A stretch of DNA of 64,000 bases from Amoebidium appalachense (lineage: Eukaryota > Protista > Ichthyosporea): positions 310,001-374,000 of the forward strand of contig CAVNZM010000002.1 of NCBI GenBank assembly GCA_963693365.1, in the 5' to 3' direction. The translations under genes and the position numbers were made by a program. The first letter of the stretch is position 1. Each line of letters begins with the position of its first letter. The notes below the pieces were generated by a model. The model had not been told where the DNA came from and ran no database searches. It worked only from the letters and a program-made list of their open reading frames with translations. This document shows positions 13,801 through 63,771 of this stretch, one piece after another.

Positions 13801-14971
13801 GTACATGCTCTATGTGGGTGGGTGTGGATTGGGGACGAGGGGAGGGGTGACTTACATGCCATGGGTGTGTGTGTGGGGGGGGGGGAGGCTGGGTGTACAT
13901 GGCCTGTGTGTGTATCTGGGATCGCGCGGGCCTGGGGTGGGGATGGGATAGGTTTAAATGGGCCGTGTGTGTAATGGGAAGGGGGGGAGCGGGAGGGGGA
14001 ATGGAGGTCTCAATAGTCTGTGTGTGTGTGCCCGTCCGTGTATGCAGTCTGTTCTTTCGTGCCCGGTGTGAGCATAGCCTTGGTGTATGCAGTCTGTTCT
14101 TTCGTGCCCGGTGTGAGCATAGCCTTGGTGTATGCAGTCTGTTCTTTCGTGCCCGGTGTGAGCATAGCCTTGCCCCTCTCCCCCACCCCCACCCCAAACA
14201 CAGACTCTGTGGCACGGGTGGTGCCCAGCATTTTCCAGCATGTTCTTTATAGTGACTGTGTGCATGCAGGCATCAAGCGCAAGATCTATCTGGAGGGCAT
14301 CAATAAGTACTCCATCTCCCCCGGTGCGGCTATTCGCATAGCTGCTTTCGTGCCTGGCATAAAGGTGTGCACGTGCAAGGGTGTGAGTGTGCACGTGCAA
14401 GGGTGTGAGTGTGCACGTGCAAGGGTGTGTGTGTGCACGTGCAAGGGTGTGAGTGTGCACGTGCAAGGGTGTGTGTGTGCACGTGCAAGGGTGTGAGTGT
14501 GCACGTGCAAGGGTGTGAGTGTGCACGTGTGTGCGCAGACTCACATGCCTACACATCTGTGCACCTTCTTTTCATCACGGACAATGGGCCCATACACACG
14601 TGCGCGCACGCGCTTTCCTGCAGACAAACACATTCACATGCTCACACATGCCTGCATACACACACAGCGAGACATTCCCACACATACACTCACACGCTCA
14701 CACATGCCTGCATACACACACACGTACGCGCGCGCGCCCACACACACACACACACACACACATTCCTGATCACGCGCACATGCATAAACAAGTGTACTCA
14801 ACACCTACCGTGACTCGGGCAGGCACAAGTTCACAATGGCAAGCATCGACAAAAAATTTTTTTTGTGTGTTCTTGCTGCTGGCTTGTCATGGACTTTGCA
14901 TTCTGTGTGTCTGTCTGGTGATGGTGTGTGTGTGTGTTTGGGGGAGGGGAGGTGTGTTGTTTACAAAGGGT

Positions 14972-15592: not shown

Positions 15593-15737
15593 ACACACCT
15601 GTACTGTAGATGGCATTGGGTGTCGTGAGGATGGGCTCTAGTTGTGATGCACACGCTTCGTGTAAGCACCTTTGTTGCAACATCTGCATTCTCTTGAATC
15701 TCGTGGATGTGTATTTGACACCCTCTACCCCATCTTT

Positions 15738-15772
<35 letters not shown>

Positions 15773-16191: not shown

Positions 16192-16446
16192 ATGGAGACA
16201 ACAGAGGTGAGATGCAAATGGTGGCACAAGCAGCAACGGAGAGGGATGGGTGTGTGTGTGTTAGGTGTTTGTGTGTGTGTGTAGGGGTGGGGGGGGGGGG
16301 GGGAAGACAAGGGAAGGGACAGTGTGTGATCGTGTGATCTTTTTCAGTGGCCACTAACACTGGGGGTGTGCAGCCAAGGAGGGGCCCATCTATGAGACAA
16401 AGTGGAGCCCCACAGCTGACGAATTTGTGGTTGTGCACGGATGTAC

Positions 16447-16493
<47 letters not shown>

Positions 16494-17330
16494 CGGGCTA
16501 AGGGGTCGAAACTCAGACGCAATTGATGACTTGGGCCCTCCCTGAGGATGGGCTCTGCTTATGACGCATACTGTGCGCATGGCTGATGCTGCATACTTGA
16601 ATGTTTGCCTTTGCATGTGTCCTGCACCATGCTTCTCATCGTGTATGCGTACTTCGTACTGTGTTCCGCATTCAAACCCCCCTGTCTTCTTTCAGAGGTG
16701 TCCTTTCAGGACAGACCACTGTGTGGAGACATCTTTACTTCCATGCAACCGGGCATGGTTGCTCTGTGTCGTGCATCTGTAAGCACATACGTGTTTGTCG
16801 CTGCACTGCATTAGTTTGCACACACATCTTCACCGTTTTGCTCACCTTGCTTGCATAAGCAACCCTGCTCGTCTTTGATCAAGACGGGTTGACCCACCCA
16901 AGTTCAGTTGATGCTGCTGTCTGAGTTGGAGCGTCGTATATACGCGGGCTAAGGGGTCGAAACTCAGACGCAATTGATGACTTGGGCCCTCCCTGAGGAT
17001 GGGCTCTGCTTATGACGCATACTGTGCGCATTCCTGATGCTGCATACTTGAATGTTTGCCTTTGCATGTGTCCTGCACCATGCTTCTCATTCTCATCGTG
17101 TATGCGTACTTCGTACTGTGTTCCGCATTCAAACCCCCCCCCCCCCCCCCCTTCCTCCCTCTCCCCGTTGCCCTTCTTTCCTCTCACTTTTTCTCAACGC
17201 CCCAAGAGTCCTTTGCCTCTCGTTTCTGAGGATGAGCCCTACTTGGCACGCTTTGTGTGCTCCTATTTGCAGTTCCGCCTTGGCGTGTCTGTCGTGCATG
17301 TGTACCTCGTACTTTGTAAGCATTCTAGGC

Positions 17331-17361
<31 letters not shown>

Positions 17362-17492
17362 GGGGGGGGGGGGGGTCCTGTGCAGCCTTAGCCATTTTTT
17401 TCAAGCTGGACCTAACGTGCACGCACATACACACACTTACACACCTCCACACACACACACACACATACACACACGTGAGTACACACACAAAT

Positions 17493-17555
<63 letters not shown>

Positions 17556-17570
17556 AGTACACACACACAT

Positions 17571-17631
<61 letters not shown>

Positions 17632-17664
17632 AGTACACACACACACACACACACACACGTGAGT

Positions 17665-17695
<31 letters not shown>

Positions 17696-18052
17696 TACAC
17701 ACACACATACACACACACACAGTCATGCCTGCCAAGGCCACCCTTTTTGGGCCGCAGTGCAAGCCCCTCTTCGACTTTGGCACCGGAAAGCGGAACACGG
17801 TGCTCTTCAGTCCGCATGGTCACATCATCTGCCTGGCTGGGTTCGGCAATCTGCGCGGCGAGATGGTATGCACCAATGGGAGTCGGGGATTAATGGCTAT
17901 ATATGGTTATTTGGGTATATATGATCATTCATCGCATTGTATACATCCGGGGGGGGGGGGGGGGGGGGGGGTGTCTGTGTGTCTGTGTGTGTGTGTGGGG
18001 GGGGGGGGGGGGGGGGATGGAGGGGAGGAAGGAAAGGAAGCATAAAGGTGTT

Positions 18053-18083
<31 letters not shown>

Positions 18084-18575
18084 GGGGGGGCGGCACGGCA
18101 GGATATGATGCACCGGTGTGGATGTTTGCATGTGGGGATAAGCTTCATTGACGCCGTGCATGGTCATGCCTGAACGTCTACTTTCAGTGTTCATGGGGTC
18201 TGGACCGTGAAGTTCTAACGCATGGGTGGGGGTTTTATAGGAATTTTGGGACCGCAAGAAGCTCAAGAAGGTCAGTGTGGTGCAGGCGCCTGACTCGACC
18301 ATCTACAGCTGGGCCCCAGATAGCGAGCACCTGATGACCGCCACAACATCCCCTAGGATCCGGTGCGCGGGGGGGGGGAGAGGGGGGGGGATGCGTGTGT
18401 GTGTGTGCGCGTGTGTGTGTGTGCGTGTGTGTGTGTGTCCGAGGGTGTCAGCGGGGTTTTTCTGACGCATTTGTGAGCAGGGTGGACAATGGGCTCAAGG
18501 TGTGGCACTATCGGGGTGACCTGCTCAGCAAGAAGGACTACAGCGAACTGCTCAATGTGCGTCACAAATCATGAG

Positions 18576-18607
<32 letters not shown>

Positions 18608-19285
18608 ACTGCCCTTGCCTGCATAAGCAACCTTGCTCGTCTCTGATCAAGACGGGTGACCTACTCATGTTCAAGTGAAACAGTATCTGAGTTGGGTTTC
18701 GTTAACGAGGGGAATAGGTCGAAACTCGGGTACTGTGGATGACGTGGGCCCCCCCTGAGGATGGGCTCTGCTTATTATGCATACTCTTTATGTATGGCTT
18801 GCATTCTGCATCGTGTTATCCGTTTGTTCTTGTGTACTTCGTACTTTTTGACGCATTCAACCCCCCCCCCCCCCCCCCCCCCCCCCTTCTCCGCCCTACC
18901 CCCCCCCCCCCACCCCTTTCTCGTCTTTTTCCGCCGTAGCCAAACCCCTCTCCCCCCCCCCCTCCCCCCCCCCCCCTCCCCCCCACCGGCGAACGCGCGC
19001 GCACATACAAACACACACGTGCACGCGCGCGCAAAGTGATAATAATAATAATAATGATGATAATAATAATAATGATAATACACATACACACGCACACATG
19101 CACACACTACATGTATTTGTAAGGACACCACAGCAACTGGGATACCGATGTCGATCCTCATCCTCGTCATACTAGCATCCTGCCTTCCCTTCCTCTCACT
19201 TATTTGAGCACACGTGAGGCCCCATTCAGCCATTGGCCATTGTCGTTCATTCTGCTCACCTCCCCCCCCCCCCCCCCCCCCCCCC

Positions 19286-24609: not shown

Positions 24610-24941
24610 ACCTCGATGGTGATTTGGCCAATGGGCTTGCGCTGGTCATCGACCACCCACACACGATACGACCCCCCCAGGATGCACTGCAACCCCCCTG
24701 CCGTCAGCTCCCAATAAAACCCTCCTGCCGTCAGCTCCCAATAAAACCCCCCTGCCGTCAGCTCCCAATAAAAACCCCCTGCCGTCAGCTCCCAATAAAA
24801 CCCCCCTGCAATCAAGTTCCAAAAATCACCCCTACCCTTCCATGAAATCTCAGAGCTAGCAAACTAGTTACAGCAGTGTTACCCGCCCCTCCAACTACGC
24901 TGCTATTTGTTCCTTCTCGTCAATGTCTACCTGTCTCCTCC

Positions 24942-26570: not shown

Positions 26571-27695
26571 CAGGGTACGAAGAGCACATCCACGAGAGAC
26601 AACAGAATGCAGGGGAAGGGGAAAAGAGAAAGAAAAGAACAAAAGAAGAGAGAGAGTATGGGCGGGGGGAGGGGGGGGGGGGGGAGGCGGGAGGATAGAG
26701 AGAGTTATCAGCTTTTCCTTCTCTCCCCCTTTCCAGCCTCCCCCCCCTCCACAACCCACCCCCCTCCTGCGTCCCAATCATCCCCATTCCCACCCCCCTC
26801 CTGCGTCCCAATCATCCCCATTCCCACCCCCCCTCCTGCGTCCCAATCATCCCCATTCCCACCCCCCTCCTGCGTCCCAATCATCCCCATTCCCACCCCC
26901 CCTCCTGCGTCCCAATCATCCCCATTCCCACCCCCCTCCTGCGTCCCAATCATCCCCATTCCCACCCCCCCTCCTGCGTCCCAATCATCCCCATTCCCAC
27001 CCCCCTCCTGCGTCCCAATCATCCCCATTCCCACCCCCCTCCTGCGTCCCAATCATCCCCATTCCCACCCCCCTCCTGCGTCCCAATCATCCCCATTCCC
27101 ACCCCCCTCCTGCGTCCCAATCATCCCCATTCCCACCCCCCCTCCTGCGTCCCAATCATCCCCATTCCCACCCCCCCTCCTGCGTCCCAATCATCCCCAT
27201 TCCCACCCCCCCCTCCTGCGTCCCAATCATCCCCATTCCCACCCCCCTCCTGCGTCCCAATCATCCCCATTCCCCACCCCCCCCTCCTGCGTCCCAATCA
27301 TCCCCATTCCCCACCCCCCTCCTGCGTCCCAATCATCCCCATTCCCACCCCCCCTCCTGCGTCCCAATCATCCCCATTCCCACCCCCCCTCCTGCGTCCC
27401 AATCATCCCCATTCCCACCCCCCTCCTGCGTCCCAATCATCCCCATTCCCACCCCCCTCCTGCGTCCCAATCATCCCCATTCCCCACCCCCCTCCCCCTC
27501 CGCAAGCCGCCCAACCAGCACCTCCCCTGACCCTAAACTCCCATCGTCCCTTCCCTCCGCCCCACGTCGTCTCACCACTACCAATCAACTTGATAGGGCT
27601 AGGTGTTCGGTGTTTCAGAGGATTTAATGGGTGATTGCCGTTGATGAGTAAGGAACAGACGCTGGTGTTCAGGAGGGGAAAGGTGCAGGTATTGT

Positions 27696-30046: not shown

Positions 30047-30998
30047 TCCGGACGAGAATGTTGAGATAGGACGTGGGGGAAGAGGGGGAGGGGGGGGGGG
30101 GGGGTTAAGAAGTATTCGGCAATCAGAAGAGAACTTGAGCTGTGAGATTGCAGATAGGTGTGAGGGCCAGAGATTTGAAAGTCTATTGCAAAATATCAAG
30201 TGAAGGACACAAAACCGACATTGGGGGGCTTCAAATTGATTGTGTATGCGGTCTGAGAGTACGAATTAATCAATTCATGACGGACAACACAACGTGCCAC
30301 GTTGTTGCAAACTTTTTGTTTACAAGAAGAATATACAGTCTAAGCAGAGCCCACCCTCGAAGGTGTGCCAAGTAACACACAGTATCCTATATGGGGGGAA
30401 ACGGGAGGGAGGGGGGATGGGGGGGGGGGGGGGGGGGGGGTTTGCACGTGCCAGGGGGGATGGCTACTAAACCTGCACAGACTGCCACAGTGAGATACGA
30501 TTCAGTTCACGTATGTGGTCTGATATTCGGCTATTCGGTCAGAGAAAGAGAGACATTATTGATAACGAAGGTACTCAAGGGCTAGAAAAGCATGTGTTCG
30601 TTAATATTTTGTGTTATCCATGGGCTCATAAACACGCCTGGCTCCCTCACAATGCAGTAAGAAGCACAAACTGAGGATCCAAGTGTGCCTCCCAGTTGTC
30701 TCTGTCTCCGTCTTACGATACACCTTCCCCTCTTACAGCGACGACAGTAAAACGCACATAGAGGTTAAGACACAGTTGAAAAATGCATGATATACACTAA
30801 ATAGGAAGAAAATGCCAAAGGGAAACGCAGACACAAAGGAAAAACAAAACTTAACTCAAATGTACAGAGTTACTTCTGTCCACTTTGAAAAAATTCAGTG
30901 TCAGAAGGGGGGGAGACACTCACAGTGACGAGGTTCCTTTTATGGGCCACCAGCTCGGCCAGCGTGTGCTCTTGAAGGAAGTCTTTAATGTTCAGCAT
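23806..30998 (-). CDS. Four-CBS-domain protein (AMPK-gamma/Sds23-like), 8 coding exons, ~320 aa
   Basis: Exons 30998-30924, 29660-29508, 28653-28448, ~28012-27863, ~26397-26274, 25532-25434, 24686-24612 and 23889-23806 join in frame. CBS motifs include [21 protein letters not shown]...[36 protein letters not shown] and [21 protein letters not shown]. Confidence 0.88.
24691..24808. repeat. Intronic minisatellite, ~4 x 27 bp, abutting a splice acceptor
   Basis: Unit approximately ccccctgccgtcagctcccaataaaac. Confidence 0.9.
26755..27492. repeat. Intronic minisatellite, ~21 x 34-36 bp, with G-quadruplex potential on the minus strand
   Basis: Unit cccctcctgcgtcccaatcatccccattcccacc, varying mainly in C-run length. 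Each unit has four G-runs on the transcribed strand. Confidence 0.95.
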
Positions 30999-33415: not shown

Positions 33416-35132
33416 GGGAGAGGGAGAGGGAGAGAGAGGGAGGGAGGGAGAGAGAGAAAGAGAGAGAAATGGAGGGAGGGGGGGGTGGGGGAAAGAGAGA
33501 GAGAGAGAGACGCAAATACACACATGATGCTCACACATACAGATATGCGCACACAGCGCGCACGCACACACACACACACACACAGAAACACCTATTGTAG
33601 TTGTTCTTTCGGTCCCCCCATGTGCTTGTCGTGGCATCCACATCCTGGATATGAATTGGACATTGCCAAACACGTGCGCTAGTGTATTAGTTATGCTACA
33701 TACAAAAGAAAGTGCCTAAATAGGGTTTTGCAGGGAGCGGTTCCAGGCAGAGTGCGAGTCTGGGCGGCAGCTGGGGGTACAGGCCAGTGACGTCATAATG
33801 CTGGACGTGGGCGGCCGCCACTTCCACACCACCCGCCGCACGCTGTGCGCCGTGCCTGGGTCCATGCTGGCCGCCTGGTTCAGCGGCCGTCACACCATCC
33901 AGACCCGCCCCGACGGCACGGTGTTCATCGACCGCTCACCCCTGCTGTTTGAATATGTGCTTGACTACCTACGCACGGGCGGCGATCACCCCTTGACCCC
34001 GCCGGACGAAAATGCAAAAGAACGGCTCCGTGACGAGTTTCAGTTTTATGGTTTGCCCTGGTTTGAGGCTGATAAACCATCCATGTTGGATTTTGTGGGT
34101 GGCGATGTGCAACACATAATTCTGGGTCATGAGTTTGAAGACGGCAATCCTATGCAAATGTATGTTGGTGCCGGTCGATTGCTGACCACGTTGAATGGCA
34201 CATTGGAAGAAGGAGTGGAGTGCGCAGGGATATTGTGGGGCTTGGCAACAGGGCAGAGGATTTGTTCATGGCCCATGGAAGACGCAGTCCACGGCAAAGT
34301 CCAAGAAATGATTCTGTTTGGCGAAGATGAGAGCGCGCAAGAGATTTTGGGGTTTTACAGGAAGGATGACGGGGTTGTAACGGCAGTCTTTTACAGCTGC
34401 CAGGACGGGTCTATGATTCGTGAACAAGTGTTGCAGGGTGAATTCAGCGAGGTGAAATGGATGGGTGCTAATAGGGAGGCTTCCATTGCCCTACTGCGAG
34501 ACGAGTCGAGAGTGTCGGCGTGGAGCCTCGACACAGGCGCGTTGCTGTGGGAGCGATTTAGAGGAACCGAGTCTTTTGATTGGTTTGGGGGCCTTAGTTG
34601 CGACACGTTCCTATATAACAACTATGGCGACAGGGGTGGTCTTGTTGTGTGCAATCTGTCTACTGGTACAGAGCTCTACAGGGTTGCTACTAGTAAGCCT
34701 TGGACCCCTGGTGATAATGACTCCGTCAGGCTGAAGGGCAAGCAACTGTGCTGCATTGTCAAAAATGGCACTGCAGTGTTTTATGAGTCGTGGGATGAGA
34801 AGGGTGTCGTACTTGTTCCATTCACCAAAATGGTTTGTGAGGGTAAAGGCCTCCATGTAGTGAGTGATGGATGTGGAGATATGATTGTAACAACCACAAA
34901 AACTGGTGTATGCATATATCCGATTGTGTTTCCTGCACCACACACGGTTGCAGTGGGCAAGGGAATTGTGGTAAGGCTGGGTGATGGTGGAGGGCCCTTT
35001 GATGATGTTGAATTAATGCGGGTGGCGGGACGGACAATAGCCGTGCTGAGTAATTCTGGTGAAATCGACTTATTTATTGTTGTGCACGAAGAGATATCTA
35101 GAAAACGGCGGAAGATAGGTAAGCGGGTTTAG
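32334..35132 (+). CDS. Coiled-coil + KCTD-type BTB/POZ domain protein with a probable C-terminal beta-propeller, 2 exons
   Basis: Exon 32334-32503 joins 33734-35132 in frame. BTB_2 signature: LDVGGRHFHTTRRTL...SMLAAWFSG...VFIDRSPLLFEYVLDYLR...EFQFYGL. The beta-rich C-terminus has VSAWSLDTGALLW-type blades. Confidence 0.9.
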
Positions 35133-42917: not shown

Positions 42918-43409
42918 GCACACACACACAAACACACACATTGCTGCAACGTGAGGGCCACCACGCAACACTTACACAGCGTCTCGGCAATCACACGCGA
43001 ACAGTACACAAACAGACGACAAAACACAACTTTTATCCAACGTGCCCAGTGCACACCATGTATACTGCTTGGACATGAAGTTTTTTTTTAAAAATGTTGT
43101 CTGAGGGAAATGGCCCTGCCACAGTGCAGAAGAGCAGTAAATTTGTACAGTAGACTGGGGTATCCGGTCAATTTGGTCCCCCCCCACCTTGGCGAGGCTT
43201 TTCCCCCCGGGGAAGGCTCCCCCACCCCCTCTCCCCCTCCCAACTCTACCTTTTGCACACGCCACCACCACCACAAGCACACCGACCTGCAGCCAATAAC
43301 AGTCCTGGGTGGCAGCAACAAGACATGTGTGCCCTTGCACAGGCCACCCCCCACCACACCCCGGCCCGGGGGGGCCACTCTTCCCTCCTCCCCCCACCCA
43401 CCCCCCTCC

Positions 43410-43505
43410 AAGGGTTAGCTCTGCTTCGTATGCATAAGCTTTTTGTGCCGCACCTTGCATCAGTGTGTTGATGTCACCGTACTCTAATATCACATTTTAA
43501 CAATA
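43410..43505 (+). mobile_element. Highly diverged 3' fragment of the poly-C element family
   Basis: gctctgcttcgtatgcata...cgtactctaatatcacatt followed by poly-C; it matches only short motifs. Confidence 0.35.

Positions 43506-47730: not shown

Positions 47731-63771
<16,041 letters not shown>

Follow-up and report, generated by a model that had tools for sequence, protein, structure and literature searches.

Within the 64,000-nt stretch of DNA analysed here (referred to as the window), a 451-bp non-coding tandem repeat, likely copied in a Penelope-like manner, probably carries an active hammerhead ribozyme of the SGC/CSG family, modelled with its core opened between A9 and G10.1. Two intact copies of the predicted motif, A and B, were located (Table 1), each ~160 nt long and with the strand order GUU, GAAA, CUGAGGA. 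They are ~80% identical over the motif, and all 13 positions of the hammerhead core (i.e., CUGAnGA or C3–A9, G12–A14, A15.1–U16.1, and H17) are present and identical between them, as are 73 of the 89 paired and 39 of the 60 unpaired positions. Every feature named for both copies in an earlier, sequence-only reading was found in its place, and the non-circular order put forward there (GUH, then GAAA, then CUGANGA) was confirmed in A and B by a layout descriptor. Cleavage is predicted 3′ of 16927 in A and after 18693 in B, i.e., where that reading had placed it and in agreement with hammerhead numbering.

Table 1. Predicted motif parts, repeat copies and other features of the window.
Feature	Position	Strand	Details	Basis or context
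Copy A, complete core-opened permuted hammerhead motif (predicted)	16853..17014	+		descriptor and pair comparison
Copy B, intact motif (predicted)	18621-18775	+		descriptor and pair comparison
Core, copy A	G10.1 16891; U16.1 16926; H17 16927; GAAA 16959-16962; CUGAGGA 16993-16999
Core, copy B	G10.1 18658; U16.1 18692; H17 18693; GAAA 18721-18724; CUGAGGA 18755-18761
Block S	stem III 5′ strand 16918-16926; H17 16927; stem I 5′ strand 16928-16931	+	H17 = U16927 (GUU)
Block G	16954..16970	+	stem II 3′ strand (16954-16958), GAAA (16959-16962), stem III 3′ strand
Block C, split	16989..17003	+	stem I 3′ strand 16989-16992, CUGAGGA 16993-16999, extra U 17000, GGG of H1
Stem II 5′ strand	16891..16895	+	G10.1 = 16891; partner 16954-16958
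Helix X 5′ strand	16897..16904	+	partner 16979-16986	pair comparison A/B
Outer helix H0	16854-16861 with 17007-17014	+	8 bp
Short helix H1	16863-16865 with 17001-17003	+	3 bp
Hairpin H2	16867..16889	+	8-9 bp, ends just 5′ of G10.1
K-turn-like module	16909..16914 with 16970-16978	+	joins stem III to X	pattern inspection
Subfamily A element	16493..17134	+	1.4 tandem units of 451 bp, 5′-truncated, C-run flanks	eIF2A-like gene intron, sense
Element 3′ end	17125..17151	+	GCAUUCAAA running into C-run	207 nt downstream of predicted cut
Subfamily B element	18608..18860	+	5′-truncated just before the intact motif	next-but-one eIF2A-like intron
Second subfamily A copy	54087..54610	+	1.2 units, core A6 to G
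Subfamily A copy	50403..50543	+	5′-truncated, begins at block C
Subfamily B copy	56864..56973	+	5′-truncated
Divergent 3′ fragment	17200..17330	+	same element family
Further divergent fragments	15600-15738; 43402-43505; about 30235-30400	+; +; -
Near-perfect palindrome	49800-50062		~265 bp, long terminal inverted repeats, internal sub-repeats, MITE-like	intronic
Long single open frame	33720-35132		N-terminal BTB/POZ (Pfam BTB_2, E 1e-17)	surroundings intron-dense
Minisatellites	26755-27495; 14038-14172; 14365-14529; 24691-24832		periods 34, 45, 22, 27; 95-100% matches

Eckert et al. (2023; PMC10085705, in the sections covered) treated the hammerhead as three blocks (S, G, and C) and validated the orders S-G-C and C-S-G in vitro, while assuming block C (CUGAnGA with the adjoining stem II strand) to be inseparable, which allows six permutations. 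The sequence-only reading was thus right in calling the order non-circular, but this order, considered possibly new, had already been validated as type SGC. In the motif of the window, the stem II 5′ strand lies upstream of the predicted cut site, opens with U-GAC, and is directly followed by helix X. A core open between A9 and G10.1 is predicted from this upstream location, and the motif can therefore be described as an SGC ring whose break has shifted into block C, with A9 and the extra U on one side and G10.1 on the other. None of the three usual linkers is left open, and the new gap is sealed by H0, H1, and H2. The module between stem III and X of copy A consists of a 3-bp stem, a 3-nt loop, tandem G.A pairs, and a U.U, which we take to resemble a K-turn; copy B retains the G.A pairs and the U.U but misses the 3-nt loop.

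The pairing of stems I, II, III, and X (3, 5, 9, and 8 pairs, respectively) was compared between A and B over helix lengths fixed after viewing both sequences, which are the only two intact independent ones in the window: 17 of these 25 pairs were unchanged, none was broken, and all eight that differed (four by one-sided and four by two-sided changes) still paired. One two-sided change fell in each of the four helices, and the helices proposed earlier held. More specifically, the covariation of stem I is a single compensatory change, stem II shows one compensatory C-G to U-A change plus an extra pair in B, and the 8-bp helix X shows one two-sided and one one-sided change. The stems closing on the core measure 3–4 bp (I), 5–6 bp (II), and 9–13 bp (III), and the G10.1-C11.1 closure of stem II was found only with the 5′ strand taken from upstream. 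The outer helix and hairpin (H0 and H2), also reported earlier as kept, are present in both copies, but since they are invariant between A and B they receive no support from covariation and have folding as their sole basis (pairing probability of H0: 0.98 in A and 0.94 in B); H1 shows one one-sided change. The nested minimum-energy folds contain neither stem I nor stem II, both of which are pseudoknots relative to them, and thermodynamic folding cannot score such a pseudoknotted core. Compared with shuffled sequences, the whole unit folded slightly better (z of -1.9), and its 3′ part no better (z of -0.3).

Folding also revealed that the H2 5′ strand has an alternative partner at 16997-17004 (8 bp), covering the end of the core, with a pairing probability of 0.46 in B and 0.0 in A. 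In the model, this alternative is a possible off state. Moreover, H2 ends at G10.1 and is able to extend into it, which may block the core. GUU is, in addition, a weaker cleavage triplet for hammerheads. Such competition of H2 with the core, together with the short stem I and the GUU triplet, fits a reading in which the fold is real while the copies of the window cleave poorly or with help (from a tandem-unit dimer, a protein, or H2 release) and serve mainly as a structure recognised by the RT. The persistence of copies in sense orientation within introns of a translation-factor gene points the same way, as do the weak cleavage in vitro of the minimal hammerheads of Penelope elements (PMC4209133) and the Anolis element, which inserted in vitro without needing hammerhead cleavage and gave no reads ending at the cut (PMC11167929, in the sections covered). 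We nevertheless regard this reading as unlikely, because all 13 core positions were kept between subfamilies that are only ~80% identical, and because the similarly wired SGC and CSG ribozymes cleave at 0.004–0.19 per min (PMC10085705, in the sections covered).

The link between CUGAGGA and stem II had been listed as a weak point in the sequence-only reading for being indirect. Indirect it is, but this turned out to be the actual peculiarity of the motif, with no matches in the window to a strict SGC descriptor that requires 4 bp or more of stem II directly after CUGAnGA. The GGG that follows CUGAGGA-U can form only two pairs with the bases before GAAA, and matches an upstream CCC or CCU (H1). 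An ordinary and active type SGC ribozyme could in principle be built from those two pairs, with the GG serving as G10.1/G10.2 and paired to the UC that precedes GAAA, and with the upstream strand as a distal extension or off state. A G-C followed by a G-U pair is possible for this 2-bp stem II in A and B as well as in two Octopus Naiad elements (by eye, in the supplement parts covered), and the competing H1 is weak with its 3 bp. However, the third pair would be G-G in both copies, and the upstream strand covaries with the strand before GAAA. A third variant, seen at a loose contig end that does not extend to the stem III partner strand, differs in its stem III 5′ strand but has the GUU and following GGG unchanged and the upstream U-GAC present; this U-GAC opens the upstream strand in A, B, the third variant, and Octopus alike, as it does stem II in SGC-3 (in the source parts covered). 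An ordinary SGC with a 2-bp stem II hence seems quite improbable, and the core-opened form is preferred.

Within the window, the layout descriptor matched A and B only, and it matched nothing in 60 simulated 56-kb windows (both strands), a null that is optimistic because the descriptor was written post hoc; the core with stems I and III alone matched 10 times in the same number of simulated windows, i.e., ~0.17 per window. The expectation that standard searches would miss the motif was borne out: Rfam gave no match at gathering level in the whole window, and the 23 matches obtained for 16400-19000 at a cut-off of E=10 included no hammerhead family. A canonical hammerhead (types I–III, which are circular permutations) was rejected on either strand, given the empty Rfam result and the missing succession of CUGAnGA, stem II, and GAAA: none of the eight CUGAnGA in the four regions scanned had a GAAA within 73 nt downstream. 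That the hammerhead resemblance is mere chance within a structured repeat RNA, as the post hoc descriptor, the simulated matches to the core with stems I and III, and the nil support from Rfam might suggest, is very improbable given that each of the four core helices carries a compensatory change, that the Octopus Naiads repeat the layout with helices of unrelated sequence (by eye, in the supplement parts covered), and that the context is typical of hammerhead-bearing retroelements.

Exact-pattern scans returned no loci from viral or metagenome contigs. With loose patterns, 120 loci were recovered from the viral set (48 of its 64 parts) and 117 from the metagenome set (28 of 64). Among these 237, 18 had both stem I and stem III at 3 bp or longer, and a convincing full structure occurred in none.

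The sequence-only reading was incomplete with regard to the carrier of the motif, as it had missed both the 451-bp tandem repeat ending in a C-run and the Penelope-like link. Nine copies or fragments in the 64 kb share a common 3′ end at or near C-runs, while their 5′ ends vary. Seven of the eight copies displayed enter a C-run directly at their 3′ end and the eighth enters a short C-rich tract, in line with insertion into C-runs, and the 3′ end of the element coincides with a short C-run internal to the unit. The short non-coding unit, its head-to-tail partial tandems, and its dispersed 5′-truncated copies are the traits of a retrozyme or non-autonomous Penelope-like element, and by this analogy the repeat is likely a non-autonomous Penelope-like retrozyme, albeit one with a motif of the non-circular class instead of the type I hammerhead of retrozymes. 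Among the ORFs of the window, inspection by eye recognised neither an RT frame nor an autonomous partner combining an N-terminal GIY-YIG endonuclease with an RT, as in the Naiad/Chlamys clade.

Copies A and B both reside in sense introns of an eIF2A-like gene, the host being an intron-rich eukaryote for whose lineage two protein searches returned no hits, and cleavage within these introns could be costly to the host. All eight copies for which the host gene could be oriented by eye appear to lie in sense, four of them in one eIF2A-like gene; this bias is weak, since the C-runs themselves are sense-biased in two of three gene regions. Judging from its sequence, the copy at 54087..54610 is probably inactive owing to its A6-to-G substitution. 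The fragment at 17200-17330 has lost the upstream core and retains CUGAGGA-U, and a short strand upstream of it may pair with the bases that follow the core, in the manner of a variant H0.

The head-to-tail junction of the unit was present in contigs from all four sequencing runs (one with very high summed depth), which possibly include the window's own source and of which none is on record as RNA. Such a wrapped contig junction is as consistent with genomic tandems as with circles. Only one of 17 variable positions in the run contigs fell within the 102 structured positions, a weak depletion (Fisher p of 0.06–0.08).

In the proposed mechanism for an active core-opened hammerhead, stems I, II, and III would meet around the usual core, with helix X tying stem I to stem II at their far ends, the tandem G.A pairs bending stem III towards X, and H0, H1, and H2 closing the opening at the point where a single bulged base is normal in Penelope hammerheads (one extra base being conserved between 9 and 10.1; PMC4209133). 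A read-through or element-driven transcript across tandem units would self-cleave after each GUU into 451-nt monomers, and stems II, III, X, and H0 would keep the cleavage products together, an arrangement suited to their ligation as a 451-nt circle. A host ligase may circularise the monomers (cf. the tRNA ligase proposed for animal non-LTR retrozymes; PMC7229834, in the sections covered). A Penelope-type RT/endonuclease would subsequently nick a G/C run in the DNA and prime there, and the cDNA would begin at the internal C-run of the unit instead of the cut end, with more or less than one unit being copied. This internal start and variable copying length would yield fixed 3′ ends and variable 5′ ends. 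A Penelope-like RT has been reported to start internally in vitro, although its start site shared no homology with the target (PMC11167929, in the sections covered).

If true, this would break the assumed contiguity of CUGAnGA and stem II and add a topology beyond the reach of Rfam and the published descriptors. It would also provide non-circular hammerheads, hitherto validated mainly from environmental sequence, with a genomic home in abundant retroelements, and would account for the report that the Naiad clade lacks canonical hammerheads. The engineering of switchable ribozymes could, moreover, benefit from an insertion point within the core. More tentatively, and with somewhat less than even confidence, we propose that the motif represents a seventh active hammerhead arrangement, in which the 9/10.1 bulge serves as a port for a multi-helix switch or for the rest of a circular RNA, and that non-circular hammerheads are the hitherto overlooked ribozymes of the Naiad/Chlamys clade and of its short parasites that target C-runs, reaching beyond animals if the host is of protist type.

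While the S-G-C order is already known, neither the core opening at A9/G10.1 nor the link of non-circular hammerheads to Naiads, Chlamys, or retrozymes was found in print within the open-access papers and preprint main texts searched. More specifically, the core-opened form and the Naiad link were absent from the covered parts of PMC3088659, PMC13725137, PMC10162972, PMC13159263, PMC3376415, and bioRxiv 2026.07.22.740005. The window itself adds an intronic 451-bp carrier ending in C-runs, with two diverged intact copies.

In terms of known ribozymes, the motif most resembles type SGC (PMC10085705, in the sections covered), with which it shares the identical core, the block order S-G-C, and the same non-circular ring, while helix X corresponds to the extra helix by which types SGC and CSG join stem I to stem II on their distal sides. 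The likeness extends to SGC-3, which also has an extra U before stem II and whose oligos carry U-GAC and then X after CUGAUGA (by eye). In type SGC, however, the stem II strand directly follows CUGAnGA (with an insertion of 0–2 nt), whereas block C of the window motif is split between A9 and G10.1, and its topology therefore falls outside the six published permutations. The SGC and CSG RNAs are also smaller (about 65–80 nt vs. about 160 nt), whereas the window motif has its linkers closed and H0, H1, H2, and the tandem G.A pairs added. Finally, SGC and CSG come from environmental RNA or DNA only (CSG from five soil-DNA sequences), in contrast to the eukaryotic genomic repeat that hosts the window motif.

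The carrier resembles animal non-LTR retrozymes in being a short non-coding tandem unit with one hammerhead each (PMC7229834 and bioRxiv 2026.07.22.740005, in the parts covered), for which a dependence on Penelope-like elements has been proposed. These retrozymes nevertheless have type I hammerheads, measure 170–400 nt, and have demonstrated circular RNAs, whereas the window element is known from DNA.

Naiad and most Chlamys elements were reported to have no canonical hammerheads (Craig et al. 2021, PMC8557442, in the sections covered), although eight Naiads were flagged there as ‘HHR_half_core’, with a GAAA 35–50 nt from CUGAnGA, to one side or the other; a permuted fold is not assigned in those sections. 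By eye, we inspected 14 Naiad consensus 3′ ends (the last ~600 nt or less) from the covered part of its supplement, with names assigned from the following header and the metadata order, and with seven of the eight flagged elements among them. Permuted hammerheads were readable in seven of these 14 ends. The two from Octopus display the core-opened layout of the window with unrelated helix sequences, i.e., a hairpin, a U-GAC stem II strand, X, a full K-turn pattern, a GUA triplet, a 6-bp stem I, GAAA, and CUGAUGA-U-GG. The other five are clean, with type CSG in Parc, 3_Nbra, Hpol, and Smim, and type SGC with a long hairpin linker in Ppla. Esco, Ptep, and 3_Dst show the S-G-C order with defects, and nothing was found in the remaining four. 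As a separate observation, the clean CSG ends belong to three nematode and one spider Naiad, and environmental CSG could derive from such elements. Naiads further resemble the window element in their partial tandems, 5′ truncation, and microsatellite targets, but they are autonomous animal elements of 3–4 kb with a (TA)n preference, as opposed to a non-coding element of 451 bp with C-run ends.

Chlamys elements, along with non-autonomous ones partnered with them (e.g., MRC1), likewise target (C)n and form short head-to-tail copies (PMC8557442, in the sections covered), and five of six (C)n-targeting Chlamys ends terminate in AACCCCC (by eye), as does the window unit. As an aside, near the 3′ end of the record before Chlamys-1_pPol in the same source, a hammerhead of canonical order whose loop II is long can be read by eye. 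Since none of 13 Chlamys consensus ends (last ~600 nt of each, in the parts covered) showed a ribozyme of the window type by eye, the ribozyme of the window element points to Naiad, and its target to Chlamys.
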